Shown piece by piece: positions 18,149-60,296 of a stretch of 64,000 nucleotides of DNA. How positions within the stretch are numbered: the first letter of the stretch is position 1; every line of letters begins with the position of its first letter. Location of the stretch: NCBI RefSeq assembly GCF_036588685.1, contig NC_086378.1, forward strand, positions 35,092,001-35,156,000, written 5' to 3'. A program made the position numbers and the translations under genes. This DNA is from Mytilus trossulus. Taxonomy: Eukaryota. The notes under the pieces are model-generated. The model ran no database searches, was not told the origin of the DNA, and saw only the letters and a list, made by a program, of their open reading frames with translations.

Positions 18149-19873
18149 TCAATTGATCTCCTCATACGTTCCGTCATCATATTCCATTACTTGAACTGTT
18201 CCATCATAAAATCCTATCCAAATGTTGTCGTGTATGTCAACAGCAAAAGATGATGGTTGGTTTTGGTATTGGTCTATTTTGATAAAATTTCCATTTTGAT
18301 CTAAAAGGTGCTGACGAAAACAAACACGGTCCAAAACTGTAATACGACCATCTCTCAGAAATCCAGCGCCAATAAATGAATACGCACTCTTCTCTTTACC
18401 TGTTTTTTCATCTTTTGGTGGGTACCTCATCTTGTGATTCCCGTGTTTGTCAAGAAGCTGTATCCACGACGATTTATCGTTTGGGTCACACGTGATACAA
18501 ATGTTTCCGTTTACACTCTCGTCTATGAATACTGGATTTTCAATTTTAATATTGTTGGAAATGTTCAGCTCATTCGTTTTGATTTTTTTGTCAGAATACC
18601 ATCGTATTACTGCTCCCCTTTCATTGCTTTCTGTCAAAACAGCGATATCTCTGTCTTTCTCTGGAGACGATACGGTACAAATAGCTGCCAAATGTTCAGA
18701 ACGTAATTTTATATGGGAAACCAATGTGCACGCTCCCGATTTTCTTAGAGTTCCAGCTACCGTTTTGAGAAGTTTGATGGTTTTCCTGTTTTTTTTACGA
18801 CCTATAAGCAAACCATGCTTTTGACTATGTCCAGCTGAAAATGGTTCTCCATCTATACGCGAAAGGAGAGTGGTAACGATTGGTTTTGATTCGTTTAAAT
18901 TAACCTCATTGACATCAACTCCAATAACCCAAGCCTCGTATATATTTGTCTTGGGTACAATACAAATGCAAGTATTTTCACATTTCGCCATTTTAATCAT
19001 TTTGTATTTTAAGTCTTTGTTATGATCTGCAGAGACCCCTAATTTTCTATCTCCGTTGTCTGGCGATTTTGACACATAAATATCACTTGAACTTTCGTCG
19101 TAATTCATATCTGTTTTTTGTTCATTCTTATAACGATCTGGATTTGTTTCTTTTGCAGACGCTTCTAATTTTTTATCATTTGATGAAGGGTTTTGTTCCC
19201 TTTTTTCCTCTTTATTTGTAAGAGATGATGTTTTGTCTACGGCCTTTGCCTTCTTACATTGAAAAAAATCTTGATAAAATTCTTTTGTTAAATATTTCTC
19301 CTCTATTTCAAAACTAGGAGGTTCGATATTCGGGATATTTTCCGAGTTGTTTTCGTTATTTGCCATTTTTTGCAGCTCGGAATTTAATTTTACAACATCT
19401 GATGGTTGAATGTTAGAATTTTGTTGTTGTACTTTCCTTGTTATTTGTTGTAAATTGCTACATCGAATATGATGATAATTATAGCATTCCTCAAATTTCA
19501 CGTTCGCTTGGTGCCTCGATTGATCAATCTGTCGTATAGCTTCTTCTTGTAATTCATGAAAAATTGTCTTTATTTTTCGTGTTTTTGAACGAATTTTAGT
19601 AATGGTTTCATCAACTGATTCGTTAAATGACCCTTTAATTGTTGTAACAACCTGCATTGTTTCGGTCAAACGTGGAATATCCTTTTCAGTTATTTCTGCA
19701 ATACTTTCAATCAAAACTTGTTTGTTATTGTGATCATTGAGTTTACTTTTTTTGCATGTAGTATGTTTTCCTTCTCCTGAAACACAATCATCACACACAA
19801 AAACATTGCATGCATCGCAATGGAATCTAATTTCTTGTAAAGTGTGTTCAGCGCAAGTTCTAGACGATGACAT
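18149..19873 (-). CDS. RING-less TRIM-like protein 1 (B-box2 + coiled coil + linker + NHL-like beta-propeller), 574 aa
   Basis: B-box CAEH...CDAC...CDDC...HTTC; helical heptad region; propeller blades PVFIDESVNGNICIT, FLRDGRITVLDR and PSSFAVDIHDNIWIG; acceptor TTTTAG| at 19893 just upstream of the ATG. Confidence 0.9.
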   Translation of the reverse strand: MSSSRTCAEHTLQEIRFHCDACNVFVCDDCVSGEGKHTTCKKSKLNDHNNKQVLIESIAEITEKDIPRLTETMQVVTTIKGSFNESVDETITKIRSKTRKIKTIFHELQEEAIRQIDQSRHQANVKFEECYNYHHIRCSNLQQITRKVQQQNSNIQPSDVVKLNSELQKMANNENNSENIPNIEPPSFEIEEKYLTKEFYQDFFQCKKAKAVDKTSSLTNKEEKREQNPSSNDKKLEASAKETNPDRYKNEQKTDMNYDESSSDIYVSKSPDNGDRKLGVSADHNKDLKYKMIKMAKCENTCICIVPKTNIYEAWVIGVDVNEVNLNESKPIVTTLLSRIDGEPFSAGHSQKHGLLIGRKKNRKTIKLLKTVAGTLRKSGACTLVSHIKLRSEHLAAICTVSSPEKDRDIAVLTESNERGAVIRWYSDKKIKTNELNISNNIKIENPVFIDESVNGNICITCDPNDKSSWIQLLDKHGNHKMRYPPKDEKTGKEKSAYSFIGAGFLRDGRITVLDRVCFRQHLLDQNGNFIKIDQYQNQPSSFAVDIHDNIWIGFYDGTVQVMEYDDGTYEEIN

Positions 19874-20899
19874 CTTTCTGGTCCAAATGAGTCTAAAATA
19901 AAATTAAAGTACAAATGATATTGTGTGTGTCAGTGTCTTGTACGTTTACAACTTTGTGCTAAACAAAAAACAACAAAAAAAAATAACAGGAAACACAAAA
20001 AATAACTGGACAGTATAACATACCACATCAATCACTAACAAGCAGACGAACAAAAGAAAAACACATGTATGTATATCAACCAGAAGATTTCTTTAAAATC
20101 TATAAATCAGTTATTGAATTTCTACTTAAACGGAGTTCAATTTTAATGAGGGGTTAATTTGAGTATAGAAATATGGTCATCACTGATTTTCCTCGACCTG
20201 GCAATAAATTGCTGCAAACATACACAGACTAGTTTAGAAAGACTTTTTAACTTCAAAAACCTTGTATACGACGACAGTCAAGCTTGCTTTCTGCATGTTC
20301 AGAAACCATTGCAAAATCTCTCTGAGGTTTCCCTAATTAACCGTATGCAATGCAGCATCTAAGCCCATATTCCAATATTCCCTAATTTTTAAATGCAATC
20401 TGCACATGTTCTCCCTTCTAAACACACTCTGGTCAGCCTAAGCAGTGTATTAATTCAAAATTTCCTCTCCCAATTATGCAATATGACACATTTGCCCCTG
20501 GACGTTAACATGCAACAATGAAAAGCGAATTCACGTTTTTGAAAAAGAAAACAAATGCAGCCAATTATTTTCGGCCTTATTTAGGGGGTTTTACGTAATG
20601 CATAAAGTTTAAACGGGCGATCGATACTGACCGTTTTTTTTTTGTTTTTTTTTAAATAGCATACATATATATTTTTGTTTAAAACCTCTAAGTGAAAAAA
20701 TAAGATTAGAGCATTGCATAAAATGTGTCATCCAAATGGCTACTTCGTCGATGGTATCCAAAGCCATTCAGTCATTTAAAAAATCTTGTCAGGTTTTTGG
20801 TCACAATTTACCGTAATTCCACTAGAATTTGTATAACATGGATATTTCCAATCTTTGAGGTTTTATGTGTTTGATGTCACAACTTTTAATGAATACCCG

Positions 20900-21105
20900 G
20901 CCATAAAAGAGAGGCGAAAGATACCAGAGGAATATTAAAACTCATAAAGAAAAATAAAGACTGAGCAGCACTAACCCCATGTGCTCCGGAAAGGTAGGCA
21001 GATCCTGCTCCAGATGTGGCACCCGTCGTGTTTCTCATGTTATTACGAACCAAGGAAATAGTCAAATTCGGTAGGTCACTTTCGTGAAAAAGTACGGGAT
21101 TACAG
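20900..21105 (-). repeat. 3'-terminal repeat of the Penelope-like element family
   Basis: Reverse complement of ACGGGTGCCAC...GAGCAGGATCTGC.TACC.TTCCGGAGCAC, which follows the RT relic at 62220; further copies at 30895-31340, 52750-52900 and 63010-63150. Confidence 0.7.
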
Positions 21106-21117
21106 CTGCACTATTAA

Positions 21118-21588
21118 AGGTAACAGACCACCAATTAAAAGTCCCTATCTGTTCAACCAAATTTTGCAATTTTCATAGCTTTCTAAATCTTTTATCTTAA
21201 GTTTAACCTCTAACAAACCAGGTATGTCCTGAATCGCACAGGTATCACCTTTCTTCATGCCAATTTTCAACATACCTTTAAAGCCATATAAGAAAGAAGA
21301 GACCTTCCGAACTGATGTACCACTAAAAATAACCCCTGGTTTTCTTGAAATCTTATATTAGTATACTATGGAGCGCATTAATTCTCAATTTTTAATGTCA
21401 ACTCATAGACATGTAAATTTGGGCTCAAAATGGTCTTAATATATTTCTCTTTCACCAAAAGTTTCATTTTTTGCAAATTTGTTGGGTAGTTTAAGTAAAC
21501 AATGACATCAAATGCACTATTTTTTGTCCGAGTAGGCCTACTTTCACTTTTCCTTAAATTTGAGGGAGTAATCGGTGGTGTGACACCT
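21118..21588. mobile_element. Degenerate MITE
   Basis: Imperfect TIR AGGTAACAGACCACCAATT / AATCGGTGGTGTGACACCT. Confidence 0.5.
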
Positions 21589-22039
21589 ATTAGGAACTTA
21601 CGACACGATTAATCATGTATTGATCGTTACATTTGCGTAACCTGCAAAGTTAACATGGTAGCGATTAATACGCCTTCATGTTGACATAGAAAATTTCAAA
21701 CTCTTGAAACCACTTTGATTTCGCTTAATCTTTTTTATTATATTCCTTTTGTAAAATTGTGTTTCTTTTATTTATAGTTAAACTTGACAATTTATAGCAA
21801 TTATAAATAGACATATTACCTTCTAACGAAAATTTAAAACCCGATGCAATTTGGTCCACTTATTACTAAAATAGTTGCGTGTAAAGTTCAACTATTTTTA
21901 ACTGTGGAAAGTCTAGTCGACTCTACTTCCTGGAACATTTACTGCGAAAAATATTAAATCTACCAGAAGTTAAACACCATAAGTAACTTTTGTGATTTTC
22001 TAAAAGTTATCAATTCGAACTCTTTCCTGTCAGTGAAAA

Positions 22040-22350
22040 GTAAAAACACAAAAATACCGAACTCCCGAGGAAAATTCAAAAAGGAAAATCAAAAATCAAA
22101 AGGCAAAATCAAAAGTCCAAACACATCAAACGAATGGGTAACAACTGTCATATTCCTGACTTGGTACAGGCATTTTCTAATGTAGAAAATGGTGGATTGA
22201 ACCTGGTTTTATAGCTAGCTAAACCTCTCACTTATATGACAGTCGCATCAAATTCCATTAAATTGTCAACGATGCATGAACAAAACAAACATACTCAAAG
22301 AGTAAAAATGTCAAAAATAGGGGTACAACAGTCAATATTGTGTTATCATC
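22040..22350 (-). repeat. Short interspersed repeat, family E
   Basis: Homologous to 40085-40360 (same orientation) and 27130-27390 (opposite orientation); shares the AGTCAGGAATATGACAGTTG core. Confidence 0.8.
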
Positions 22351-23169
22351 TTAATTGATTTTCTGTAGTAATCCGTATACTAGTACATAATATTGATAAT
22401 TGAATGTAAATGATCTAACCATTTATAATTATTAATCATTTACTGAACCTGTTTGTTCAGTAAAACTAACACTACAGGGGTGCCCTGTCAAATGCTTTAG
22501 ACATGGTATTCTTTATAACAGCAATAGTGCAATAAATCAGGTTTTATATAAAAAAAAAAAAAAAAAAAGATTTACAGTATGCTTTAAAAGCTTATCATTT
22601 GTAATTACCAATTCATCAAACAATTTACATGGTAATTGACTTTTAAAGATAGGTTACTGAAATGAAACGGCATCCAGGTAACCATTGAAAGCCCGTAACC
22701 CCTTCAGTCAGTTTTGATTGTTGAAAACGCCCATCATTAAATGTTGCTAGTGATTTGTTTTGATTTTTTTTTCAAAACCTATAAGCCAAACCCTGAGTTA
22801 TAATCAAAATCCGAAACCGTAAATTAAAACCAGTTTTAATGCAACAAATACTATGAATGCTATGATACGAGAAATGAAATAATCTTTTTCAAATGTTGGG
22901 ATGCGACCTGATCTTGGGATGTTGGCACTAGCTATATAGACATGTTAGAAAATTTTATTGATTTATCTAGCACCGGAAACCTAGTCCACCTTTTCAAAGC
23001 GGCTTTAATATTGTCCAAATCATTTGATAAAATTTATCTATATTTTACGTATACAAAAGTCGAGATTTTTTGTCTGAGAGCGATATATAAAATAAAATAG
23101 AAAATTGATGAAGCATGTAAAATGTTTGAGGTTCTAATCAGTAGAGAAATAGAATATGAATATTAAATG

Positions 23170-23420
23170 TAAAATAAAGGCAACAGTAGTATACCGCTGT
23201 TCAAAACTCGTAAATCTATGGACAAAAAAACAAAATCGGGGTAACAAACTAAAACTGAAGGAAACACATTTAAAATTAGAGGATAACAACGACACCACAT
23301 TAAAATGTAACACACAAAGAAACGGACTAAGCATTAGACAATATCCGATGAGAATAACAAATATAACATCAAAACCAAATACATGAATTTTGGATTGAAA
23401 AGTGCCGTAGATGTGATTCA
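23170..23420 (-). repeat. Short interspersed repeat, family D
   Basis: AAAGGCAACAGTAGTATACCGCTGTTCAAA end shared with 36505-36710 and, inverted, 59520-59575. Confidence 0.8.
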
Positions 23421-24479
23421 AAGGAAATTAAAGGATTAGGTTGAAAAAGTAAGTTACTTGTATACAAAATTATTAAACTTAATCAAGATGAAGAATTTTA
23501 CTTAATAGACCATCATATATTCTTGACTTGCAAGAGAATATAGACTAGCTTTTGAAAACGAATAACATTTCCTGTTGGAGTGTAATACAAATACCAAAAA
23601 AAATAGATACCATCAAAAGTTAAACAGATGAGAGGATTTTTTTCAAGCCATAAAAACACACAGAAATTTTAAATTATGAAGCCTGCATTTACAGAAGGTT
23701 TAACAAAAATTTCATGCAGTTTTTAATTACCTTGTAGGTAAGGACACAGAAGATGTCCCAAGTCAGGTGATTCTGGCTTTTGTTAGGCTTGCATATTTTT
23801 TTTTATTTTAGTACATTTATATGTTTTGGAGTTTAGTGTGACGTCAAATGTCATTGAACTAGGACAAATTTTGTTAAGGGGCCAGGTGAAAGCCGCCTCT
23901 AGGTTTGGAATTTTTTGCTATGTTGGAGGCTCATTAGGATCCCTCATATGTTTTCTGCTCTTTGGTCGGGTTGTTGTCTCTTTGACACGTTCTTCTTTCC
24001 ATATACATTTTCTGCTGCGCATAGATCATCTTTCAGGGTATTCCAAAGTCATGTGAAAGAGCGTTTTAAGGAAAGGATCCTCGAAAAACGTATAATTGTC
24101 AATTTGTCCTGTTTTCAACGTTCTATGTTTATGTAGTCACGTCATGTAGCGTTTAGATATCTCAGTTGATAATATATTGAAAACACGTGTTAATTTCGAC
24201 ATTTGCTCTTACATGTATCTGCTAGTTTGTCGAGTGTCATTGTGACGAGTTTTCCAGCAGTGACAATTTACCATACATATGACCGTCTCGTTAGACAATA
24301 TACTTAATTTAGTTCACTGGGACACACGAGATGCGTGTAATGTATGAAGTACTTGCAAATACCTGAATGGAAGGACGTCAGTCACATATCTAAAATTGAA
24401 TCTAAAATTGAAACTACATTGTAATGATTTATTCTGGATGTGTTTCATTTTGTCATTTGTATTGATTACTATGTAAGAC

Positions 24480-25065
24480 ATTCTTTACACGCGGCACCGG
24501 ATTCAAATTAAAATGTAAATCATATTTAAGCTAAGTCATTAAACTTGACTTACATTCCTATAAGTAGGTCTTCCTTCTAATAAAGATTCAGGGATTCTAA
24601 TTGATGATGTGTATCCTCATGGCAGACCCTTACCTGTACTTATGACTATCAATAAATCAAATTCTTTCTATGACAACAGTATACGTAAACTTTCACTTAC
24701 CTGTACTTAGAACTGTCATTCAACTAAGTTCGTTCTATATTACGACATAAAGATCACTGCGGCCTGTGATTTCAATTGAATCTTGTCAATGTCGCGACAT
24801 TTGGTAAACACATCTAATTTGTCTTTGAAACTCTTACTTTTTCCTTCTTTTTCCTGTCTGTTGCTTTTACGATTTTTAATTTAGTTTAGACAGGATTTCT
24901 GTCCACAAAGAACTTTTAAAGCAGGTTAAAACTTACCTATGCTACCTGTTTAATATGGTGAGTATTTTTATTTGTTTATATATATATATTGAAATATGAT
25001 AACGGTTTAAACACTTTGTTTAAACTTGGAGTATCCTTTTGTATTGAATAGGTAAAGTAACAAAT
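24480..25065 (-). promoter_or_regulatory. Conserved upstream block of TRIM-like gene 1 (candidate promoter / 5'UTR exons)
   Basis: Collinear similarity to 32065-32797 (CGGCACC.GATTCAAATTAAAAT; GTTCTATATTACGA.ATAAAG.TCA; CTACCTGTTT); minus-strand donor consensus AG|GTAAG near 24633, 24701 and 24935. Confidence 0.55.
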
Positions 25066-25300
25066 CAAACAGGAATATCATAAAACGTTTATATCATACA
25101 CTCGGTGATACATATTCATACGTTTTCCACTAAATGCATTGCGAATAAAATGAATTTGTATCACCTAACGCAATAGCATTGTTTACCAAGTTCGAATGAG
25201 TTTATTCAATTTATTTAAAATCATGTATACCCACATAGTTTCTAGAACGTTTTTATATATTTAACAGCAATGATTAGATTGTTTTCAATAAAAATGTTAA

Positions 25301-25688
25301 GGGAGTTCGCTTCTCAGTTTCAAAGTAATTAACTTTTCAAAACACTAGCTTATATAGATAGGGGATTAATAAAGTAATCCGAAGAGCAAAAAAATATATA
25401 GGTCACCGTGCTTGTTTTCGAGATATTAGCCATTGAAATTTTGACGGGAAAATATTCTCTCTTGATTTTTCATAGCTTTATCATTAAAAAGTTGAAGTTC
25501 TCAAAAACTGTTAAAAAGTAATAAAATTTTATAAGACTTTTACAGATGGCTTATCATTATACATGTAAAAGATTTACAAAAATAAAAATGGGGGTCAACA
25601 GGCAAATTTTTTCAAGGCATTCAAATGGATAAAACCAGAGGATTCCGAAAATCTGACAAAAAATCTAAAACATGACAAGCCAGCTTCC
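25301..25688. mobile_element. MITE with TTAA TSD
   Basis: TTAA at 25297-25300 and 25689-25692; imperfect TIR GGGAGTTCGCTT / AAGCCAGCTTCC. Confidence 0.65.
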
Positions 25689-26451
25689 TTAACATCGTGG
25701 AATACATCTACTCCAGATTTCATCTCCTAGCTGGTGTTTAGGCAAATAGATAGACGCGTTATCAGTGCAAAGCCATTAGCATTGCTTTCATTAGGGAATT
25801 GTGAATAAGTACCTGCAGAGCAAACACTATTTCTAGTTATACTGCAATAATGGACACGAAGACGCTTGACGACCTTTAATAGTACAGGGATATAGGCGAT
25901 TCTCTCTATCTGATAAATGTAACAAAAAGGCGCGGATAATTGATGAACATTTCCGGTGAGGGACATAACTCGAAAGTAGTCTATATATTCAGCTTAAATG
26001 AGACTTAAAGAAACAACCAGGAAATACCCCAATTCCTTACACTCATTTGGTCACCTCGATTATTGCTTCCACTACTCATGTTACTTCAGATCTCGAACAT
26101 ACAACTATTCTGAAGTAGTTCCAAAACTATACACAAATGTCTTCTCTATAAACCAAAATGATAAAATTACTATAGAATGATTCTATTCAAGGGAACAGTT
26201 AATGTATATGGATCATATTATAATTTGTGCGCTCTAGAAACAACAGCACCGTAAACCAATAGGATGCGACACTCTTGAATGTATCTGATAACCATTTGTT
26301 ATAAGATGGATACAGGCACAGAATAACTTTCTTAATACAAATGATTTTTTTGTTATCTTATTTAATGAAAAGGAAACAATTGGTAACATGATTTATGCAA
26401 TATATCACAATGGAAGCAAATTTTCCGACTTGATATCGACGTAATACTGAA

Positions 26452-26931
26452 AGGAGTAGGTCCAGTAAGACCCTTTTTTGGCTGTTTTTGACAATACAGT
26501 GCACATAGAACGGGAACTAGCACCATAAAGGCATGCTAAATTACTGAAATCTTCACAATTATAGCATTTTAGTTAAATTTTAGACGGTTATCGTGTAAAA
26601 CGAAAGTGGCCGCATTCGTGTTCAAATGAAATGTAAGTTGTATTTTATGATAATACATAACATATTTAAAGGTTGAGGATGAACACGGATGCGGCCACTT
26701 TCATTTTTGACAAAAACCATCTGAAAAGTGACATTTTTCGGCATATTTGGTAGATTTTTCATATTTGAGCTTGAATCGGATCGTTTTAATGACTAAATCA
26801 GTTCCAATCTTTCACATAAACTATTTGATTCAAACGAAATAGACACTTAAGTGTTTAAAAAGTGGTCAAAATCTTTCGTCAGATGTACCTGAAATTTGAG
26901 GCCAGAAACGGTCCTTACCGGACCTACTCCT
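26452..26931. mobile_element. MITE with AGGAGTA termini, TTAA-type target (Kolobok-like)
   Basis: TIR AGGAGTAGGTCCAGTAAG / CTTACCGGACCTACTCCT; flanks TGAA and TTAA; internal inverted repeat AAAGTGGCCGCATTCGTGTTCA / TGAACACGGATGCGGCCACTTT. Confidence 0.8.
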
Positions 26932-27695
26932 TTAAATCATCTATACTTGGACAAACCGTATTTAATATCCGGGTAAAGGAAGAATAGCTTATTTCCGTAC
27001 ACATACGGATGTTCTTTACTGAAAGGAAAATAAAAAAAAATATTTTGTTATAGCGAGGGAATTTTGTTTTATAGTGATACAAATAACACAATGATGACAG
27101 ATGTATCCTATTTTTTTAATTTTATATTGTTAACTATTATGTCTGTTTGCTTTGCTCACACATTGTTGTCAATATAATGAAAATTTATCTGACTGTCCTT
27201 CAAGTGAAAAATTTAGTTCGCTATTAAACCAAATTTAATCATCCATTTTTTTTACATAAGGACAGACTTGTACTAAATCAGGAATATGAAAGTTGTTTTC
27301 CTTCCGTTTGATGTGTTTGAGATTTTGACTTTTCCATTTAATAACGGACTTTTCGTTTAGAATATTCCATGGAGTTGATTTTTTTTAACACTTCAAATAT
27401 TTTAGTGTACTTATCTCAGGTGAAGAACTTCGTCAGTAGTTGTCTTTTATTTCATCTTCATTTTTTTGTTTTTTCAATATTTTTTCTAAAATAAGAGAAT
27501 TTTCGCAATTTTTGGGGCAATTTGTTTATAAACATATGGTATGTTGTGGAAGACCAAGTGTTGCTCAATTGTTATCCTTTATTGTGTTGTTGAGATGAAA
27601 GATAGATGCCTTATTAGATTATTCTCCACATCTCATTTCATTCATATTACAAGCTGTAACATATACAGAAGAATAATGTAGTGCAATATATTTAA

Positions 27696-28010
27696 GGTGT
27701 TACCCAACACTTTAAATAAAACTAATTTGGCTCGTTTAATTTTCATAAAATTTTGACAAAATGTTACTTTGACCCTTTGATAAAAACCGGGCTGAAGTAC
27801 GTTCACTATTCCCGATAAAATTATAAAAATTTCAAAAAACTTGAACCAATCACTTCCTCGGAAAAAATTGGTTGGATATATAGCATTTTGACAATCACTA
27901 ATTTTAATCATTGAGAAGCTTAATACATTTGTATTTCTTTAAAAATACAACGTGATTGAAACGTTAAGCTGATTTTACAGAGTTATCTACCTGTAGTGCT
28001 AGGTACCACC
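27696..28010. mobile_element. MITE with TTAA TSD
   Basis: TTAA|GGTGTTACCCAACACT ... AGTGCTAGGTACCACC|TTAA; a partial inverted copy lies at ~63155-63241. Confidence 0.8.
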
Positions 28011-28223
28011 TTAAAGCTTGAACAAAAACCAACAATTACAAATGCATATACATCATTTTCCGCAGTATATATCTAATGCCATTACTCTCATCTTTACTAA
28101 AATTCAAAATATAACAACTTCATACATATTTTGGAGGTTCGCACAATAGTCATGAGTATTTCTACTGTTAGTACCAAGAACTAAGTAATTAATTAAAAAA
28201 AATATATAACTAAATTGAATATA

Positions 28224-29981
28224 TTAATCATTAATTTCAATGTCCTCATACCATCCGTCCTTATATTCCATCACTTGAATTGTTCCGTCGTCAAATCCTA
28301 TCCAAATGTTGTCGTATAAGTCAACAGCAAAAGATGATGGTTGGTTTTGGTATTGGTCTATTTTGATAAGCTTTCCATTTGCATCTAAAAGGTGCTGACG
28401 GAAGCTCACGCGATCCAAAATTGTAATACGACCATCTCTTAGAAATCCAGCACCAATGAATGAATATACATTGTTCTCCCCAACTGATTTTTCATCTTTT
28501 GGTGGGTACCTCATCTTGTGATTCCCTTGTTTATCAAGAAGCTGTATCCACGACGATTTATCGTCCGGCGCACACGTAATGCAAATGTTACCGTTTGTAA
28601 ACTCATCCATGTATATTGGATTTTCAATTTCAACATTGTTGCTAATGTTAAGGTCATTCGTTTTTAATTTCTTACCAGAATACCATCGAACGACTGCTCC
28701 CTTTTCTTTACTTCCTGTCAATTGGTAGTCATGTAGTAGTACCGCGATATCTTTCTCTTTCTCTGCAGGTGTTGACACTGTACAAATAGCTGACAAATGC
28801 TGAGCATGTGCATTTATATGAGAAACTAATTTGCACACGTCCGAAGTTCTTCTTAGTGTTCCAGTCGCTGTTTGAAGTTGTTTGATGGTCTTCCTGTTTT
28901 TAAGACCTATAAGTAAACCATGCTTTTGACTTTTCCCAGCTGTAAAGGGTACTCCATCTATACACGAAAGGAGTATTGTTGATTGTGGTGATTGCTTCAA
29001 ATTAACCTCGCAGATATCAACTCCTATAATCCAAGCCTCGTAAACATTTGTTTTCGGCACAATCAAAGTAACAGCACTTTCACATTTGAAAGATTTAATC
29101 ATCTTGTAGTTTAAGTCTTTGTTATGAACTACTGAAACCCTTGATTTCGTATCTCCTTTGTTTGCCGAGTTTGACACGTATATGTCACTTGAATTCTCGT
29201 CGTAGTTCGTATCTGTGCCTTGTTCATTCATGTCTAAACCTGAATTGATTTCTTTTGCAGACGAGACAAGTTCTATACAATCTGAAGAGGAGTTTGGTTC
29301 TTCTATACCTTTCTTATATGTACACGGTTCTGCTTTCTCTTCATCTTTTCTATTCTTGCATTGAAAAATATCCTGATAAAATGCTTTTGTTAAATATTGT
29401 TCATTTATTTCAAAACAGGGTGGTTCTAGTTTCGGGATGGTTTCCGAGTCGTGTTCGATATGTAACATTTTTTTCATTTCGGAATCAAATTTTACAACAT
29501 CTGAAGATTGAATGTCGTTTTTTTGTTGCTGGACTTTCTCTGTTATTTGCACTAATTTGTTATATCGAGTTTGATGATGATTAAGAAATTCATCAAATTT
29601 TATGTTTGCTTGTCGCCTCGATTCATCAATTTGTCGTATAGTTTCTTCTTGCAATTCATGAAGAATTGTCTCTATTACTTGTGTTTTTGAACGAATTTCA
29701 GTAATATTTTCATCCGCTGATTTGTTAAAAGATTTTTTAACTTTTGTTGCAAGTTCCAATGTTTCCTTCAGACGTGGGAGATTTTTGTCAGTTATTTCTT
29801 CCACATTTTCAATCAAAATTTGTTTGTTCTTGGCACCATATTCACTAAGTTTAATTTTGATACATTTAATATGTTTCCCTGCTGCTGTTACACAATCGTC
29901 ACACACAAAAACATTGCATTCTTCGCAATAGAATCTAATTTCTTCTGAAGTGTGTTCAATGCAAGTGGAAGACAGTGACAT
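28224..29981 (-). CDS. RING-less TRIM-like protein 2 (close paralog of gene 1), 585 aa
   Basis: B-box CIEH...CEEC...CDDC...HIKC; long identical stretches with gene 1 (GNHKMRYPPKDEK, FIGAGFLRDGRIT, IKIDQYQNQPSSFAVD); acceptor TTTCAG| at 30001. Confidence 0.9.
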   Translation of the reverse strand: MSLSSTCIEHTSEEIRFYCEECNVFVCDDCVTAAGKHIKCIKIKLSEYGAKNKQILIENVEEITDKNLPRLKETLELATKVKKSFNKSADENITEIRSKTQVIETILHELQEETIRQIDESRRQANIKFDEFLNHHQTRYNKLVQITEKVQQQKNDIQSSDVVKFDSEMKKMLHIEHDSETIPKLEPPCFEINEQYLTKAFYQDIFQCKNRKDEEKAEPCTYKKGIEEPNSSSDCIELVSSAKEINSGLDMNEQGTDTNYDENSSDIYVSNSANKGDTKSRVSVVHNKDLNYKMIKSFKCESAVTLIVPKTNVYEAWIIGVDICEVNLKQSPQSTILLSCIDGVPFTAGKSQKHGLLIGLKNRKTIKQLQTATGTLRRTSDVCKLVSHINAHAQHLSAICTVSTPAEKEKDIAVLLHDYQLTGSKEKGAVVRWYSGKKLKTNDLNISNNVEIENPIYMDEFTNGNICITCAPDDKSSWIQLLDKQGNHKMRYPPKDEKSVGENNVYSFIGAGFLRDGRITILDRVSFRQHLLDANGKLIKIDQYQNQPSSFAVDLYDNIWIGFDDGTIQVMEYKDGWYEDIEIND

Positions 29982-32064
29982 CTTTTAGGTACATTTGAGT
30001 CTGAAATAAAATAAGCTATCAATGCTATAGTTTTAATGTTAGTTTTGCGTAGGAAAAACACCGTTTTTAACATTGTTAAATATATATTTGTGTATATATA
30101 TGACAAGAGTATTTGACGTTGCTCTGTACATATACATCCAGTCATTATGGTATTCATGGTATTGTGCTATGGTAATTTTTTGTGGGTTTTTTTTCTAATG
30201 TGCTTTGTGTGTATGCCTTTTTTGTTTCTTTCTTGCATATAACGTGGCTCTGTACTTATACATCCTGCCATTATGTTATTGTGCAATGGAACATTCTTGT
30301 ATTCTTGTCTTTCATTTTTTAATGTGCTTTGTCAATATATCTTTTAGTGTTATTTTGTTTCTTTCATAGCATATGATGCAGGCATTAGACATTTTTAGAA
30401 TTGAGGAACAAATTTGATGTTTTATTTGCATGTATATGTCCTTGAATTTGACACACACATTTCGTTTGACGTATGAAAATACAATGCAGATTTTCAATAT
30501 GATTTAAGATACATTATTTTACATATACAATTAAACAATCATACATGAAAATACATAGATCATGTACAAATACAAATATATCGCATGCATGCCAATAACG
30601 ATTTTCTTCACTTGGATCCCGTGCATGTGGTAATTATTCAAAATAAAACATTTACATATTGAATTTAACGTACGTGGAAAGTACACTTTAAATGAAAAAC
30701 TCTATCTATGAATTAGGTATAAACCTAAGGTTTCTAACATTAAAGCTCTTAATTACAAAACCGTGATAAATAGAATACATTTCACTATTTAAAGTAATAG
30801 ATATAAAAAGATATAGAAAACAACAATAAAACATTGAGTTATGCTTCTTTGTCTAAATATGTAAGATTGATCAATTTAATCAATAATGACGTGCTTCAAG
30901 TGGTTAAATTGAAAAAATTCCTTCGTGAATTTTACGGACGATATCACGAGTTGGTTGACCGTTTTGGAATATCTGTTTCACAGATACCGACAGATATGTT
31001 CCAATTGTCGTGACTACAATCTCGTATCTCTTTCTCTGAAAGTAGCCTTCTGAATTAGTCTTATCACCTCAAATGTTCGTGTATGATCAAGACGATAGGT
31101 ACAACATGTCGAGCAGGATCTGTGTACCCTTCCGGAGCACCTAATATAACACCCAGATTTTGGTGGTGATCGTATAACTCCGTTAGTCTAAAAAAGAAGA
31201 TGTGGCATGATTGCCAATGAGGCAACTATCCACAAAAGTACAAAATGACACAAACATTAACAACTATTTGTCTTTTTCTATTTTAATCATTGTTTTGTCA
31301 TTTCAGTTTGTTCATCTTATGAGTTTGAATGTCCCTCTGGTATCGTTCGCCTCTCTTTTATACGTGTTTAGTTTTCCGTAAAGTCTATGTAAGTCTTGGT
31401 TCAAGTATATTTAGAAACAAAAGAATGCTTTATTGTTATTTCCATGCATTTTGATAGCGGTTTCGTATGAAGTAATATATTAATGCTTATGAAAACATCT
31501 AAAATCTGTATACATATAAACATAAAAAATGCATGTGAAAAAAATCAGATTAAAAACAGATTTATATGTGAAAAATATTCAATATCATATTAGCTGAAGG
31601 ATACAAAAGCTACAGGACGTCGAAAATGTGTGTGATTGACAAAATAAAAGTCAAATAAAAGAAAATATTTCATTTGTCTAATCGGAAATGTTGAGTCGTC
31701 CGAAACCGACCATTTCAACAAAAGTTACCAAAATGAAGCTGATTGGTTTGATTCAGTACACTGGAACACAGTCATTAGATGTGAGGAAGTTCTGAAATGC
31801 TAGTAAGATGTCAGTAGAATGACGTCATCAAAATATCTGAAAGTGACAGTGAAGGATTTTACTAAGTGTGTTTGTTCATTGTATATTTTTTACGTGTTGC
31901 TTAAGGGAAAATATGTCACGCATATTTCTGTACAAGGGTAATGTAACAACAAATCGAAAATAAATATTCTTCTAAGTTGGATGCCCGGGATAAAGGACAA
32001 AATTTCGACAGTAACTGTCACGGGTCCTTGCAGAGATTTAAGAACATGCAGAAAGCCTGGTACT

Positions 32065-32797
32065 ATTTACATACGGCACCAGATTCAAATTAAAATCTTA
32101 CTTCTATTTCAAGTGAACGGCGTCATCAAATGTAAAAAATAAAATAATTTCTTTACTTAGTTTTTCCTTCCTAAATTTGAACCAGAGCTGCAGACGGAAG
32201 AAAAATATCAGTAAGGCTGCAAAACAGCCACTTATCTGTATTAAGAACTTATAAATTAATTAAGTATATTCTATGAAAACATTCACTGACAACATAAACG
32301 TAAGTGTACTTGAACTTATCGTTTTGGGTTTTCATTGGAGTTACTTTTGTTATTCTACTGTGTGGAACTATCGATCAATAGAACTTTGTTCTATATTACG
32401 AAATAAAGGTCATATAAAATTAAGTTAAGACCTACTAATCTAGCGAATTTTGGTATACACATATACTAATTTCTTTTCAAAAGTTGCCTTATTTTACTTT
32501 CCTTACCTTTTTGTGGCTTTTCCGAATTTCTTTCAGTTTCGATACGACGAATATCCACTTAGAATATCAAGTTAAATCAAGGCCACAATAGTGTACCGAT
32601 GATCAATGATCAAATATCGTAAAACGATTGAATAAAAGTTAAAACTTTTAAAAGTATTTAAAAAAGTATACTACCTGTTTTGTGTGGTGAATTTTCAAAA
32701 CGTGTATTTAAATACACATCAGAATATAGATTTTTACAAATTGTACAAAGCATATATGTATTATCTTTTGTAATGATTAAGTGAAATCATAACAAAT
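32065..32797 (-). promoter_or_regulatory. Conserved upstream block of TRIM-like gene 2
   Basis: Paralog of 24480-25065; contains GGCTTTTCC (32515-32523) and TTTCAGTTTC (32531-32540; GAAACTGAAA on minus). Confidence 0.5.
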
Positions 32798-32954
32798 GAA
32801 ATCACTGGTTTTTTTTCATGTCCGAGTTACCCTTCATATCTTTTTAAAGTTAGTTAATCTTCAAGTGTGAAAAATTATTGTATTGTATACCTTTTTCCAA
32901 CTCCGAAACTATGATATGCCAACACAAACTATGTCAGCCTTGACAATATAATGA

Positions 32955-33145
32955 ATACAACAGGTTCAGTTAAGTCTGCATCATATCTTGACTTACATCT
33001 AGAAATTAAAAATGAGGGTCGGTTGAAAACAAAAATTCACGACCAAGGAAATGATTTCAGTTTTCATTTGAAAACTGTGTAAAACCTGTGAATTTTCCAT
33101 TTCTGTATACTAGTATGTAAAACATTTCTAGCAGTACATGCATAT
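32955..33145 (+). pseudogene. Penelope-like RT C-terminal fragment
   Basis: Encodes SASYLDLHLEIKNEGRLKTKIHDQGNDFSF; homologous to 61825-61900. Confidence 0.6.
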
Positions 33146-33919
33146 GAATAAAATAGAGAAAGGAAATAATGGGGAATGTGTCAAATAGACAACAATCCGC
33201 CCATTTAACAGACAACATCAGAAAGTCACCAATGACTTAAAGTCTTAAATGCAGCGAGAAATTCCCGCATCCGGAGGTGTCCTTTAGCTGGCCCCTAAAT
33301 AAATATATATACTAGTTCAGTGATAATGAACGCCATACTAAGCTCCAAATTATACACAAGAGACTAAAGTTAAAAATAATACAAGACTAACAAAGTCCAG
33401 AGACTCCTGACTTTGGACAGGCACAAAAATGAAATTCATTCAAATTTCATATATAAATTATTTCAATTTCGCCCTAAATTCTATTACGGCACCTGAACAT
33501 GAAGAACAAGATTTTTTTTGAGAACCGATTGTATAGTTTTGTTATTGATATTTATCCCATATGTTTTAGATTAGTATTATTGATATACAAGAAATTTCTT
33601 GGTATTTCTAAACGGAAGATTATGCACAGAGAAGAAAAAGTATACTTAACAACAACATTATTTTCATTAACATGTGTATAATATGACGTATTTTTTTATT
33701 TTCAAAGTTGAGGTTTCAAAAACTGTTTAACATTTCACAGCGGTTTTATAGTTTTACTTTAGTTTGAATCTTTTTATTTATTTTTTGTCTTAATTATTCA
33801 TCCCTTATTTTTATTAACTATGTATTTTTATTGTATCACAGATAAAATTTATTCGTTCTGTGTGTGTTAATTTGTGTTACTACGGGTTTTTTTGTTTAGC
33901 CTTCCAATTAATATTTTAT

Positions 33920-34185
33920 AGTGTGTATTTCTTTGTTGTGATGTTATACTATTGTTTCAGAAAAGGGGAAAGGTTTGATACTATTTGACTTTGCTGTAAT
34001 TGTTTGTACCTGTCCTACGTCAGGAGGCTGATGTTCAGTGGTTGTCATCGTCTGTTTGTGTAGTTTATAAGTATTCCTCGTTTTCATATAGATTAGACCG
34101 TTGGTTTTCCCGTTTGAATGGTTTTATACAGTAATGTTTTAGAGAGTTGTTTCATTGGCACTCATGTCCCATCTTCCTATACTTT
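33920..34185 (+). repeat. Short interspersed repeat, family C
   Basis: Homologous to 41255-41629 in the tandem-array unit (ATTGTTTCAGAAAA...GTCAGGA...CATTGGCACT...CATCTTCCTATA). Confidence 0.8.
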
Positions 34186-34287
34186 ACTTATATCATAGAT
34201 TTTACAGTTCATTTCCGTATTCGGATAAATAAAATAAAATAAATAATCATAAAAACGATTATCGAGAGAAGAAATGAACATATTACA

Positions 34288-36093
34288 CTAGGTCTTGTTT
34301 TGGATATAAGTTTCATATCTATCATTGTAATTTATCAGCTGAATATTTTCGTTGTCAAACCCGACCCACAAATTATCATACATATCAACAGCCATACAGA
34401 TTGGCTGATCATGATACATGTCTATTTGTAAAACTTTTCCTCCTCTATCTATAAGGTGCTGACATCGTTTTGTTCGATCTAGTATTGTTATTGTCCCATC
34501 ATTTAGAAATCCTGACGCAATAAAATAGTTCGTTTCGTTCTCCTTAGATGTAATTTGTATTTTTGAAGGGTATCTCATCTTATACTTTCCATTCTTGTCT
34601 AAAAGTAGAATCCATGACGACAAGTGTTTCGGTGAACACGTGATGCATATGTCGCCATTGATCCGGTTTTCGCAAATGTGAATAGGATTACTAATTTCGA
34701 TGTCATCTGATAAAATTACAATATCTTTTGTCTTTTGCTTCTCTATGGAAAACCACTCAATAACAAATATCTCACTTGTAGGACTGAAGAATTTGCTTTC
34801 AGACATTGGGTCATCTCTAAGGCATATAATTATGTCAGAGCCCTTAGTTGATGATGTGCAAATTGCAGCTACATTGTTTGGATTGTCCATACTTGAAGAT
34901 GTGCTTGCGCATGCACTAGCTACACTTTTGGAATCGACGTACATATAGGAAGTTAGTTTGTAATTTTTAGCTTTGCTAAATAATGCAGAAGACACTTGTA
35001 AATTTCTAAGTGTCTTTTTATTTTCTATCCCTATCAATAATCCATGCGCATTGCTTTTACATGCCGTTAACACATTACCATCTAATGAAGGTATTCGTAC
35101 TGCGCATGTTGGTGATTCGATATTTAAATTAAGATCACTTATACCCGACCCTATTAACCATGCATTTCGACATTCCTTTTTCGGAACAATGTGAAATACC
35201 TTTTGATTGTGTTTGACTGAGACAATTACTTCGAACTTTTTACCTTTCGGGACTGAGCTATAGAAGTCGCTTCCTCTCTCATCGCTATATATCACTTTTC
35301 TATCAGCAACATTTGACGAACTTGTGTGTAACGAGTCAGATCGTTGTAGTTCTACATATTTTCTTGTTCGATTTTCGATAGATACATCCTCTTTGTCATT
35401 TTCATTTTGCAGTGTTAGTTTGAATACATCTGTATTAGAAAGTGTTTCGATAGGAGAAGGTAAATCATATTCCCCATAATCTAAGATACCTAATATATGT
35501 CGGAGGTTTTCTTTCATTTCATACTCTTTATGAAAACGGTGCTTTGGAATTTCAATTTTAAGACTTGTTTCCACAAACTGGTTTTCGTTCAGAAGTTCAT
35601 TCAGTTTTGAATCGTAGATGGCAATATCGCTTGTAGATATATTAGACCCTTTTTTCTCGATTTCGTCGACAATTTCTTGTATGTTATCTTTTCTTTGTGT
35701 ATGTTCCTGCGTAAAGGTGTCATACGTATCATTTGCAACTCGACGTGCTTCTTCGAAGCTTTTAACCAATTCTTCTTTGATTTCATTGAATATCTTTATA
35801 ATAATATCTGTCTTCGAGCAAACAGATTCTACTTCTTTATCTACTAAACAATTGAAAGATTGTTTTGCAATTTTTATTTGTTCCAATCTTCTGTTGATAT
35901 TTGGTACCCTAGTTTCTGAAGCTGATTTTGTGGTTTCCTGTAAAGATCGTTTCTGTCGTTGTCCATATTCACTTATTTTGGTTTTGATGCACAGGGTGTG
36001 GTCTCCTACCACACAATCATCACATATAAGTTCTTTGCATTCCTCACAGTAGAATCGAACCTCTTCTGTCTCGTGCTTTTTACAGCTTGTCAT
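34288..36093 (-). CDS. RING-less TRIM-like protein 3 (divergent paralog), ~601 aa from MTSCKKH
   Basis: B-box CKKH...CEEC...CDDC...HTLC; shared motifs HGLLIG, AAICT, NGDICITC, SSWILLLDK.G.YKMRYP, GFL.DG.ITILDR and AVD.YDNLWVGFD; acceptor TTTCTTTCTAG| at 36129 makes ATG 36093 the likely start. Confidence 0.88.
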   Translation of the reverse strand: MTSCKKHETEEVRFYCEECKELICDDCVVGDHTLCIKTKISEYGQRQKRSLQETTKSASETRVPNINRRLEQIKIAKQSFNCLVDKEVESVCSKTDIIIKIFNEIKEELVKSFEEARRVANDTYDTFTQEHTQRKDNIQEIVDEIEKKGSNISTSDIAIYDSKLNELLNENQFVETSLKIEIPKHRFHKEYEMKENLRHILGILDYGEYDLPSPIETLSNTDVFKLTLQNENDKEDVSIENRTRKYVELQRSDSLHTSSSNVADRKVIYSDERGSDFYSSVPKGKKFEVIVSVKHNQKVFHIVPKKECRNAWLIGSGISDLNLNIESPTCAVRIPSLDGNVLTACKSNAHGLLIGIENKKTLRNLQVSSALFSKAKNYKLTSYMYVDSKSVASACASTSSSMDNPNNVAAICTSSTKGSDIIICLRDDPMSESKFFSPTSEIFVIEWFSIEKQKTKDIVILSDDIEISNPIHICENRINGDICITCSPKHLSSWILLLDKNGKYKMRYPSKIQITSKENETNYFIASGFLNDGTITILDRTKRCQHLIDRGGKVLQIDMYHDQPICMAVDMYDNLWVGFDNENIQLINYNDRYETYIQNKT

Positions 36094-39251: not shown

Positions 39252-40189
39252 CTAGCAACATAATGAATACTTTTTCATCAATCTTGATTGAAGGCAAGAT
39301 AACATACCAAATTTGGTGATAATCTGTTGACCCCCATGTATCATTTATTGCATGATTTTTACCCGGTGCCCTACTTAATTACACATCTTCAACTTTGTGC
39401 TTAAACCTTAAACGATATATTTTATTTCCCTTAAGTTTTCATTTCTTAAAGAAATGTCTATTTTAAAATATTCAAAATAAGCAGTTTCTGTTCATTATAC
39501 TAGCAAAAGCCATTTTCATAATTGTAAAAAGTGGAAAAAAAATGATTTTTGAAACTTCAAATTATTAAAATTCAAAGTAATCTATCATTCAGCCACAAAA
39601 ATTTTTAGGATCAACCTATCAAACAGAAAAACTGAAATAGATAAAATTCGCTTCGCGTTTTGTATTTTTTCTTTTCTTTTTTATCTTATATAGATATGAG
39701 AAGATGTGGGAAGTGCCAATTAAAATTGAGAATGAAAATGGGGAATGTGTCAAAGAGACAACAACCCGACCATATAAAAAACAACAGCAGAAGGTCACCA
39801 ACAGGTCTTCAATGTAGCGAGAAAATCCCGCACCCGGAGGCGTCCTTCAGCTGGCCCCTAAACAAATATGTACTAGCTCAGTGATAATGAACGCCATACT
39901 AATTTAATTAAACAACTCTCCTTCTAAGTCATGATTTGTAAAGGTCTAGATCTACATATACAGCTGGAAAGCAAAATTTGCACTTAATAATTAAGACAAT
40001 AGCAAGTATCGATGTAAGTCCCAGTAACTCGATTAAAAAAGACAAACCAAGATACAACTAGTGAAATTGCATGAACTTCAAATAGTAAAATAACCAAAAT
40101 ACCGGACTCCGAGGCACTGAAATGAATGAAAAGTCCCTAATCAAATTGCGAAATCAAAAGCCCAAACACATCAAACGAATGTATAAAAA

Positions 40190-43100
40190 ACTGTCATATT
40201 CCTGACCTGGTAAAGGCATTTTCGTGTAGAAAATGATAGTTTAAACCTGGTTTTATAGCTGACTAAACCTCTCACTCGTAAGAAAGGCACTTAAAATTCC
40301 ACCGCAATAGGTAAAAATGTCAACAAAAGGGGTACAGTAGTCCAAATAGTTTTTATAATCGTCATCACGATAAAATCATACAAATGTGTCAACATAGAAT
40401 AAAAGGAGCAAATCGAGTGTATCGACAGCATATGCGTCTACTGCTATGCATGCGCCACTTGCAGTGCGAGTGCAAACTCAGGAAATAAGTCGCAAGTAAC
40501 AATTTGAAAGCACTGTTTAAATAACATACCATACGAGACTTCCGTGACTGTTGCAGGGACAATTACTCCTATAAGATGTCATTGTATTGTTTCAAACCAA
40601 ATGTATCATATCTTCCTCACAATCAGGCAAACATTTTGCACTAGTGTTTTTATATATATATATTCAAACGTGACAGAGGAGAACATAAAACAAGGAACAA
40701 TCAAAACTTAGAATATGACATTGACGTTTGACCTTGACCTCAATTTCATTTTATTCAATTAAGAACATCAAACCAAAGTACCTTAGATCTCTATCACTTT
40801 CCATTCATACTATAGATCAATAGATCACTTTTGTCAAATACATAAGGAAAATAACTACCAGATTGAGTGTTTGTGTCGCTTCCGTCAAAATTGGACAAAC
40901 AATGCTGAGGTTATAACGAGCAATTAGGTAAAACATTTTTTTTAGGTTTATGGAGGAGATGCTGTGTATCGTTTTTTACACACGTTTCAAATTGTTTTAC
41001 GATACCATTTCCTTGAAAGTGCAGTTTATCAATGTTAGTGGTAGAACGGGTATGTACTTGTTTATCGTTGCAAGATTATCGAAAATATAATCATGAATAG
41101 ATAAACTGTAATCAATGTTGTCTATGAAGATGTTGGCTTGGTTTTAGAAGTAGGGATATTTACAAATGTACGATTAAATATTGGGAGAAAGAAAACATTT
41201 AGCCTGAAGCAATAGTTTGGTTTTCTAGATTTGATATTTTGCCAATTGATATTTTACCGTGTGTTTTTCTATGTTGTGCTGTTATGCTATTGTTTCAGAA
41301 AAAGGGAGAAGGTTTGGATCTATTAAAATGTTTAATTCCGCTGCAAATGTTTGCACCAGTCCTAAGTCAGGAATCTGATGTACAGTAGTTGTCGTTTGTT
41401 AATGTAATTTATACGTGTTTCTCGTTTTTCGTTTTTTTTTATATAGATTACATGGTTGATTTTCCCGTTTCAATGGTTTTACACTAGAAATTTTGGGGCC
41501 CTTTATAGCTTGTTGCTCGGTGTGAGGCGTGCTGAAGGCCGTACATTGACCTATAATGGTTTACTTTTTTTTAAATTGTTATTTGGATGGAGAGTTGTCT
41601 CATTGGCACTTACACCACATCTTCCTATAACTGTCATATTCCTGACCTGGTAAAGGCATTTTCGTGTAGAAAATGATAGTTTAAACCTGGTTTTATAGCT
41701 GATTAAACCTCTTACTCGTAAGAAAGGCACTTAAAATTCCACCGCAATAGGTAAAAATGTCAACAATAGGGGTACAGTAGTCCAAATAGTTTTTATAATC
41801 GTCATCACGATAAAATCATACAAATGTGTCAACATAGAATAAAAGGAGCAAATCGAGTGTATCGACAGCATATGCGTCTACTGCTATGCATGCGCCACTT
41901 GCAGTGCGAGTGCAAACTCAGGAAATAAGTCGCAAGTAACAATTTGAAAGCACTGTTTAAATAACATACCATACGAGACTTCCGTGACTGTTGCAGGGAC
42001 AATTACTCCTATAAGATGTCATTGTATTGTTTCAAACCAAATGTATCATATCTTCCTCACAATCAGGCAAACATTTTGCACTAGTGTTTTTATATATATA
42101 TATTCAAACGTGACAGAGGAGAACATAAAACAAGGAACAATCAAAACTTAGAATATGACATTGACGTTTGACCTTGACCTCAATTTCATTTTATTCAATT
42201 AAGAACATCAAACCAAAGTACCTTAGATCTCTATCACTTTCCATTCATACTATAGATCAATAGATCACTTTTGTCAAATACATAAGGAAAATAACTACCA
42301 GATTGAGTGTTTGTGTCGCTTCCGTCAAAATTGGACAAACAATGCTGAGGTTATAACGAGCAATTAGGTAAAACATTTTTTTTAGGTTTATGGAGGAGAT
42401 GCTGTTTATCGTTTTTTACACACGTTTCAAATTGTTTTACGATACCATTTCGTTGAAAGTGCAGTTTATCAATGTTAGTGGTAGAACGGGTATGTACTTG
42501 TTTATCGTTGCAAGATTATCGAAAATATAATCATGAATAGATAAACTGTAATCAATGTTGTCTATGAAGATGTTGGCTTGGTTTTAGAAGTAGGGATATT
42601 TACAAATGTACGATTAAATATTGGGAGAAAGAAAACATTTAGCCTGAAGCAATAGTTTGGTTTTCTAGATTTGATATTTTGCCAATTGATATTTTACCGT
42701 GTGTTTTTCTATGTTGTGCTGTTATGCTATTGTTTCAGAAAAAGGGAGAAGGTTTGGATCTATTAAAATGTTTAATTCCGCTGCAAATGTTTGCACCAGT
42801 CCTAAGTCAGGAATCTGATGTACAGTAGTTGTCGTTTGTTAATGTAATTTATACGTGTTTCTCGTTTTTCGTTTTTTTTTATATAGATTACATGGTTGAT
42901 TTTCCCGTTTGAATGGTTTTACACTAGAAATTTTGGGGCCCTTTATAGCTTGTTGCTCGGTGTGAGGCGTGCTGAAGGCCGTACATTGACCTATAATGGT
43001 TTACTTTTTTTTTAAATTGTTATTTGGATGGAGAGTTGTCTCATTGGCACTTACACCACATCTTCCTATAACTGTCATATTCCTGACCTGGTAAAGGCAT

Positions 43101-51712: not shown

Positions 51713-52006
51713 TCTATCATATAATTCGTGATTGATTATATTATGTTCAAATGTTTACTATATGTTTTCCCTGGTTTTAGAGCCACAATAACCGTAAGAA
51801 AAAAAACCATAATGCAACAATAGTATAATGTAAAACAAAATTATACTAGTTACAGCCTAATGATTTAAGAATTCGTCATAAAGTTCATGTACCATATTTA
51901 AATCTGTTGTCATTTTTATTAGAAACAGTTTTTCGTTTTTCTACAAAGTTAAGCTTTTTTTATTTTTATTTCTCCAGTGTGTTCTATATATATATTTTGA
52001 TATGAG

Positions 52007-59920: not shown

Positions 59921-60296
59921 ATCTATTGATATTTAGATTCTAATTCAACTTTTGATAGAATTGAGAGTTTAAGAATTACAATATATGTCAACTTTATTGT
60001 TTACACTCCCTAGCAACAAAATTTAGACATTTTGACACAAGGCTTATATTTGTACTCTATATGCTTCTGAAAAATTGAGCTGTATGTAGTAGCCTAAGTA
60101 TTCAACGCTTTGTTTTTTTTCTTGCCAATATATCAAATTATCATTCTTATCATGTTTTAATGCTACATTTTAACATATATTAAATGTATAGTTGATTCAG
60201 ATGTAAGAAATTGATTTCCTATTACCAAGTTTTTTAATCAAGTCTTTGGTATGCAATAAACATGAAAATTTACATTTGCCTGCTTGAAATTGCTCA

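Follow-up and report, generated by a model that had tools for sequence, protein, structure and literature searches.

Bivalves possess many uncharacterised B-box/propeller genes, many of them RING-less. A window (the whole stretch of DNA that was analysed, 64,000 nucleotides) of Mytilus trossulus, NCBI RefSeq assembly GCF_036588685.1, contig NC_086378.1, positions 35,092,001 to 35,156,000 of the forward strand, contains three tandem genes for TRIM-like proteins. They appear to be paralogs within a RING-less clade of mussels and oysters, and from their sequences we give about even credence to their products being dimeric scaffolds that are phosphorylated on tyrosine and recruit SH2-type partners instead of carrying out ubiquitination of their own. 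We observed the domain order, the lack of a RING in the coding exon, the predicted disorder and the conservation and enrichment of tyrosine motifs on which this reading builds. An initial annotation had reported the three paralogs and their motifs, and a coordinate check found all of them where it had placed them (positions are those of the window).

18149 to 19873, minus strand: gene 1 coding sequence (CDS; P0001, 574 amino acids), an uninterrupted open reading frame (ORF) for a B-box, coiled coil, disordered linker, NHL-like propeller and short tail
28224 to 29981, minus strand: gene 2 CDS (P0002, 585 amino acids), an uninterrupted ORF
34288 to 36093, minus strand: gene 3 CDS (P0003, 601 amino acids), an uninterrupted ORF

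Genes 2 and 3 are 66% and 35% identical to gene 1, respectively. The closest named homologs are Mytilus proteins, with 89% identity to gene 2 in M. edulis and 83% to gene 3 in M. californianus and M. coruscus, and four paralogs of M. californianus, all recorded on contigs of one length, suggest that the cluster is conserved. A tblastn search with 16 proteins found no fourth paralog inside the window; P0014-P0016, which come from other Mytilus data and represent a fourth paralog type, have no separate copy there.

The absence of a RING was part of the initial annotation and held up for the coding exons. Each window protein has one B-box match in the Pfam scan (PF00643; E = 8e-5, slightly short of the curated cut-off, 3e-7 and 1e-7), and neither RING nor NHL was matched in any of the three. 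Nor was a RING found in the 26 clade rows among 53 scanned, either by Pfam or by pattern search. The following elements bear on a possible upstream RING exon.

19893 to 19894, minus strand: inferred splice acceptor AG of gene 1, read from the sequence, 19 nt before the ATG with the frame open across
30002 to 30001, minus strand: inferred splice acceptor of gene 2, read from the sequence
29987 to 29985, minus strand: in-frame TAA of gene 2, between the inferred acceptor and the ATG

An inferred acceptor precedes each of the three CDSs. The in-frame TAA of gene 2 bars a RING exon from being joined via the acceptor at 30002-30001. Genes 1 and 3 have an open frame there, and as far as the reads go an upstream coding exon is possible, but their database orthologs share the same start Met. 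Two RNA-seq runs gave low depth over the CDSs (about 1-5 per direction for gene 3) and depth near zero in some repeat-free intergenic bins, and one contig set stops at 36130, which is the inferred gene 3 acceptor. No 5' splice junction appeared among the rows listed for the two runs and both contig sets, a listing swamped by repeats. The holders listed in a search of sequencing runs included none recorded as RNA, and two metagenome scans confirmed no locus.

The fold was predicted with AlphaFold for gene 1 (18 sequences, mean predicted local distance difference test [pLDDT] of 75) and gene 3 (53 sequences, mean pLDDT 79). In both models a B-box is followed by a helix some 105-110 residues long, then by a brief return that is also helical, a linker, a beta-propeller and a tail. 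The coiled-coil-region helix is predicted to span residues 50-154 of the gene 1 protein and 40-151 of the gene 3 protein, and the family profile matches the coiled-coil regions of TRIM28, TRIM25 and TRIM5. Foldseek placed the NHL domains of TRIM2/TRIM3 first (7qrv and 7qrw, E ~1e-11), with WD40 propellers narrowly behind, and a profile including distant relatives matched the TRIM2 NHL at E 1e-36; by these models the window proteins have a C-terminal propeller of the NHL type. The initial annotation had proposed disorder as a check on linker and tail, and this check came out as expected, with pLDDT below 50 at residues 210-287 and 568-574 in gene 1 and at 211-282 and 592-601 in gene 3. No Pfam match to a filamin domain was found between the coiled coil and NHL, a region predicted to be disordered, and none to a PH or PTB domain in the window proteins. 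They also contain no hydrophobic stretch of the signal-peptide or membrane type (maximum 19-residue hydropathy 1.0-1.1); sulfation of the tyrosines or an adhesive use of the 3,4-dihydroxyphenylalanine (DOPA) type was rejected for want of such a signal-like stretch.

In their B-box, coiled coil and NHL-type propeller the window proteins thus resemble TRIM2/TRIM3 (class VII), the top Foldseek and profile matches. Unlike these, they have no RING, no filamin domain, a single B-box, a disordered linker of 70-80 residues and a short tail with Tyr motifs, and their propellers are only 11-14% identical to those of TRIM2/TRIM3. With RING and filamin domain missing, they are by definition not canonical TRIMs; they are TRIM-NHL-like members of the bivalve expansion, in a subgroup that from sequence looks like a phosphotyrosine scaffold. 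One study describes an antiviral role of mouse TRIM2 that is RING-independent, and its immunoprecipitation with anti-phosphotyrosine (PMC6380604), which offers a precedent for the scaffold reading. In Marin 2012, which also gives the TRIM definition, TRIM-NHL proteins TRIM2/TRIM3 belong to subfamily C, with Wech and Brat as TRIM-like members in Table 1 (PMC3503706). The Brat NHL domain matches the window family at E ~1e-10 by fold and 6e-19 by profile. Both Brat and Wech of Drosophila are B-box/coiled-coil/NHL scaffolds without a RING; the former is an RNA-binding protein, the latter connects integrin complexes, and neither is known to have a phosphotyrosine docking role. The same architecture is found in the expanded B-box/NHL family of bivalves (named automatically, for example as TRIM56-like or 'B box-type domain-containing protein'), and the nearest Atlas clusters are mollusc zf-B_box + NHL. 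A B-box orthogroup is listed among bivalve expansions in one source (PMC8382680), 108 B-box annotations are given for a mussel transcriptome in another (PMC5549309) and 22 TRIM genes for Aplysia in a third (PMC9334734).

What sets the clade apart from this wider family is the tyrosine content of its linkers and tails. The alignment comprised 118 proteins of 430-720 residues taken from homolog searches, one of which supplied candidates from the 150 listed of its 338 matches. In a tree built without linker and tail, 13 non-redundant proteins split from 30 sampled distant relatives (support 97/91; the pool for sampling excluded 6 long-branch rows), and a larger tree of 113 rows gave the clade a Shimodaira-Hasegawa-like support of 99, with the caveat that nearest matches to a query tend to group as a clade anyway. 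Compared with 92 distant relatives, the 13 proteins have a higher tyrosine density in linker and tail (odds ratio 2.9, p = 1.5e-6), and the Tyr:Phe counts of 44:10 against 44:64 indicate that Tyr is not simply traded for Phe. A context rule, which asks for Asp/Glu among the four preceding residues together with V/I/L/M/P at +3, fits 21 of the 44 clade linker/tail tyrosines and 4 of the 44 distant ones, compared with 22/175 in the folded parts of the clade proteins. Shuffling within segments gave a mean of 6.2 against the 21 observed (p = 0.0002), and at least one such site is present in 11/13 clade proteins vs 4/92 distant relatives. With both homologous site classes taken out, by omitting the tail and the first 12 residues of the linker, 9/24 tyrosines vs 1/23 still fit (p = 0.01).

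One of these two classes lies at the C-terminus, where the initial annotation had described a short tyrosine tail in all three proteins.

18155 to 18166, minus strand: tail motif YEEI of gene 1 (amino acids 570-573), predicted disordered, the best SH2-type site of gene 1
28239 to 28250, minus strand: tail motif YEDI of gene 2 (amino acids 578-581), located by coordinate check
34291 to 34332, minus strand: tail of gene 3 (amino acids 588-601), in which Y589 is the generic propeller-terminal Tyr and the next motif, YETY, is predicted disordered

The claim stood for the second tail tyrosine. It is present in 9/10 Mytilus paralog groups, which share 23-66% identity with gene 1, and seven of them have I/V at +3; the versions are YEEI, YEDI, YETY, YEDN, YETV, YSEI, YSEV, YSSI and YAEV. 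The first tail tyrosine (Y565 in gene 1) sits in the last predicted strand; its column is Tyr in 63/88 distant relatives with a full propeller and aligns with the terminal VYRYL of TRIM2. As a docking site it was rejected, being a generic last-strand residue of NHL propellers. Typical bivalve B-box/NHL members have Tyr-poor linkers and end a median of 2 residues beyond this column, with at least 8 residues beyond it in only 10/88 of the distant relatives.

Two further sites had been assigned to gene 3.

35458 to 35475, minus strand: post-coiled-coil site GEYDLP of gene 3 (amino acids 207-212), at the edge of the ordered region
35347 to 35361, minus strand: KYVEL of gene 3, located by coordinate check

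They fared differently. KYVEL was rejected as a conserved site, its Tyr being kept in only 2/4 gene-3 orthologs, whereas EYDLP (35458-35472) proved to be deeply conserved. It is homologous to a Y-[EAD]-x-hydrophobic site that follows the last helix by some seven residues and occurs in 8/14 clade sequences, including P0037 and P0077 at ~19% identity, vs 1/92 distant relatives. The site is common to the oyster-type proteins (His in Saccostrea P0028), and among the sequences compared no other Tyr site in the clade is conserved as deeply. Its position invites another explanation, that the tyrosines are structural or bind unphosphorylated, by packing on the coiled coil, docking to the propeller or sorting through YxxPhi signals of adaptor protein (AP) complexes. 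Y209 of gene 3 does sit at the margin of the ordered region, its spacing from the last helix is nearly constant, and YxxPhi is also the signal for adaptor mu-subunits. However, an aromatic residue used for packing is usually interchangeable with Phe, and none of the 8 holders has Phe at the post-coiled-coil site; both models predict disorder for tail and linker, several sites are lineage-specific and floating, and acidic residues at +1/+2 are closer to kinase and SH2 patterns than to the signals of mu-subunits. We regard this explanation as unlikely. A complex prediction for the gene 3 propeller (residues 286-592) with its own linker peptide (253-284), in which the alignment was not used, gave no answer (score 0.00) and speaks neither for nor against this.

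The linker module just before the propeller was the centrepiece of the initial annotation, which saw an acidic twin-tyrosine module retained in a poorly conserved linker.

19070 to 19105, minus strand: linker module of gene 1 (amino acids 257-268), E-x-S-S-D-I core with Tyr at +3 from Ser
29172 to 29207, minus strand: linker module of gene 2 (amino acids 259-270), located by coordinate check
35251 to 35292, minus strand: linker module of gene 3 (amino acids 268-281), ExGSDF core (35260-35280) followed by Tyr
Linkers of P0034, P0035, P0039, P0047, P0053, P0064, P0101, P0116, P0138 and P0150: ExGSDF-type motif in distant RING-less B-box/propeller proteins

The block itself is under purifying selection, as judged from the codons: between genes 1 and 2 the module 257-268 has 5 synonymous changes and 1 replacement, compared with ~17 and ~49 in the flanking linker (Fisher p = 0.009). 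SSDIYVS is invariant in 7/7 gene-1/2-type sequences, and non-Tyr linker and tail columns are invariant in 19/86 cases. What is shared, however, is not the tyrosine pair. The common core is E-x-[GAS]-S-D-[FIY], and the first module tyrosine is out of register, at -5 from Ser in genes 1/2, at -6 in gene 3 and replaced by His in P0008; the second persists in three lineages, those of genes 1/2, of gene 3 and of P0022/P0179. Most of these tyrosines match SH2 ligand patterns poorly (YDES, YVSK, YDEN, YVSN and YSDE), and only YSSV fits. P0014-P0016 keep the SDF core without the linker tyrosines and constitute a natural control.

The core occurs in 6/10 close paralog groups (shuffle mean 0.08) and in 10/92 distant relatives, mostly without Tyr (shuffle mean 0.21, maximum 2 in 2000 shuffles). 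Its distance to both domains varies, and the distant holders belong to separate clades; their best-scoring stretches stop before or begin after the motif columns, which makes selection by the query unlikely. Counted from the Ser over the 15 non-redundant holders, Glu occupies position -3 in 12 (an outcome partly imposed by the pattern) and Phe position +2 in 13; at +3 there is Asp/Glu (8 holders), Tyr (3) or another residue (4). Among distant proteins the motif was found in 0/16 with a RING vs 10/76 without, too few to be firm. ExGSDF is probably a second, older element distinct from the tyrosine sites. It resembles an acidophilic kinase site, the CK2 consensus being S-x-x-D/E. In gene 3 the sequence D-F-Y-S-S-V-P, like P0011, matches the Cbl-binding pattern (N/D)xY(S/T)xxP, of which P0012 and P0013 keep the Pro and not the Ser. 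A caspase cut site xSD|F was ranked low, with Gly/Ala/Ser and often Lys/Arg at P3/P4. Patterns for an LC3-interacting region (LIR), for two phenylalanines in an acidic tract (FFAT) and for beta-TrCP, judged by eye, do not fit most holders.

These observations give rise to a second alternative, in which the acidic ExGSDF-type motif is the functional element, as a serine-kinase site or docking peptide, and the tyrosines are incidental or an extra hydrophobic contact. Its recurrence far above shuffle means in distant linkers and close paralog groups, its floating position in separate clades, its selection in genes 1/2 and its distribution among RING-less distant proteins, small as those counts are, all speak for it. 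Yet it leaves the tail and post-coiled-coil tyrosines unexplained, several Tyr-rich members do not carry the motif (P0018-P0021, P0025, P0028 and P0037), and it is compatible with a phosphotyrosine scaffold in the same proteins. As a full account we consider it improbable.

The scaffold reading proposed in the initial annotation is carried by the enrichment across the clade and not by its flagship module, and several further results weigh against it. In the window genes only 1/9 tyrosines left after dropping the homologous classes fits the context rule, and the three window proteins alone have 4 fitting tyrosines vs 1.57 by shuffling (p = 0.06). A stricter Src-family SH2 pattern matches 8/44 tyrosines in the clade vs 5/44 in distant relatives (p = 0.55), and YxxM and YxxP each match 4/44 vs 0/44 (p = 0.12). 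The expectation that the tyrosines would be more conserved than their linker neighbours in orthologs was not borne out: pooled over 7 ortholog groups, 22/26 tyrosines and 332/485 other linker/tail residues are invariant, a non-significant difference (p = 0.12). The tail tyrosine is absent in P0014, P0022/P0179, the oyster-type proteins and P0025. The post-coiled-coil site, the deepest of the clade, was lost in genes 1 and 2; it borders an ordered region (block pLDDT 67) and could be structural. In addition, the context rule was chosen after the sequences had been viewed, the paralogs are not independent, and a search for clade homologs with a 12-sequence alignment returned from 8000 scored candidates only P0028, the sole named non-Mytilus member found.

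Such results are also what would be seen if the genes were ordinary members of the bivalve B-box/NHL expansion, their motifs leftovers and the enrichment a product of shared ancestry and a post-hoc pattern. Many mollusc clusters have the same architecture, several tests were non-significant and sites are lost in some paralogs. Against this stand the selection on the linker module (p = 0.009), short motifs retained at 18-35% overall identity in otherwise unalignable linkers, and an enrichment that persists once homologous sites are removed, and we consider it the least probable of the explanations.

Sampling of the clade in oysters, scallops and clams is thin. The linker of Saccostrea P0028 has YMPM, YEEV and YLLM, unrelated to the sites of the window genes, which counts in favour of the scaffold reading. 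Phosphotyrosine-type clusters (including YLVP and YEEL) are found in the linkers of P0028, P0037, P0077 and P0021, the last with proline-rich stretches as well. Judged by their motifs, these four proteins are probably better experimental candidates than genes 1 and 2.

If the proteins are phosphotyrosine scaffolds, the coiled coil would dimerise and the two propellers would bind a target, by analogy with TRIM biology. Clustering driven by the target may then allow phosphorylation by a kinase of the Src/Syk/Abl type at the tail site (YEEI, YEDI) and, among older paralogs as well as gene 3, also at the post-coiled-coil site (YDLP, YEEL, YAEV); the phosphorylated sites would dock SH2 proteins. 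The linker motif could have a part in this. Since +3 is Asp/Glu in 8/15 holders and Tyr in the window genes, phosphorylation of this Tyr would likely restore the negative charge and, more speculatively, might activate the motif, perhaps as a site of the CK2 type. An extended version of the proposal takes bivalve TRIM-NHL proteins to have been rebuilt as cytosolic receptor-like sensors: the RING output would be replaced by phosphotyrosine docking, ExGSDF would be switchable by tyrosine kinases via the Asp/Glu-to-Tyr change at +3, and the Cbl-type site of gene 3 could recruit a RING ligase in trans. This version is possible, if doubtful.

Gab, IRS, Dok, SLP-76 and p130Cas are phosphotyrosine scaffolds, with which the clade shares acid-flanked YxxPhi, YxxM and YxxP in disordered segments and, in some members, proline-rich stretches. 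Unlike them, it has no PH, PTB, SH2 or SH3 domain and no membrane anchor, and it has fewer sites per chain on a TRIM-type chassis, the sites being predicted ones. No description of the clade, its tyrosine motifs or the GSDF motif was found in the literature covered (mostly titles and starts of abstracts, few subscription papers), nor was anything found there on TRIM25/Src Y278 or as a source for the SH2 consensus.

The rest of the window holds repeats and a few other ORFs, and Rfam matched nothing in it.

5845 to 8397, minus strand: intact 850-codon ORF with no Pfam match at cut-off, whose motifs HMDFAENY, WTDSPTSQY and GHGKGPCDG look to us like those of a KDZ/EnSpm-related transposase
12352 to 13437, plus strand: single-ORF beta-1,3-galactosyltransferase-like gene (PF01762, E 2e-39)
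40189 to 51722: tandem array of ~8 copies of a 1.44-kb unit, 99.5-99.8% identical
53048 to 53737, plus strand: 229-codon ORF between two tandem arrays, no significant Pfam match
54522 to 58833: ~3 tandem copies of a ~1.5-kb unit, ~90% identical
59470 to 59943, plus strand: reverse transcriptase fragment (RVT_1, E 2.5e-5, under cut-off), probably a retroelement remnant

The 1.44-kb unit contains no ORF longer than 76 codons and no Rfam match, and its array is either a recent amplification or an assembly expansion.

For the B-box/propeller proteins of bivalves, the analysis offers two concrete handles that can be mutated, a clade with phosphotyrosine-type sites and the more widely distributed ExGSDF linker motif. 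If the proposal is true, kinases and SH2 proteins would take the place of ubiquitin in the signalling of these TRIM-like proteins, and a large expansion of invertebrate genes would have its first testable mechanism.

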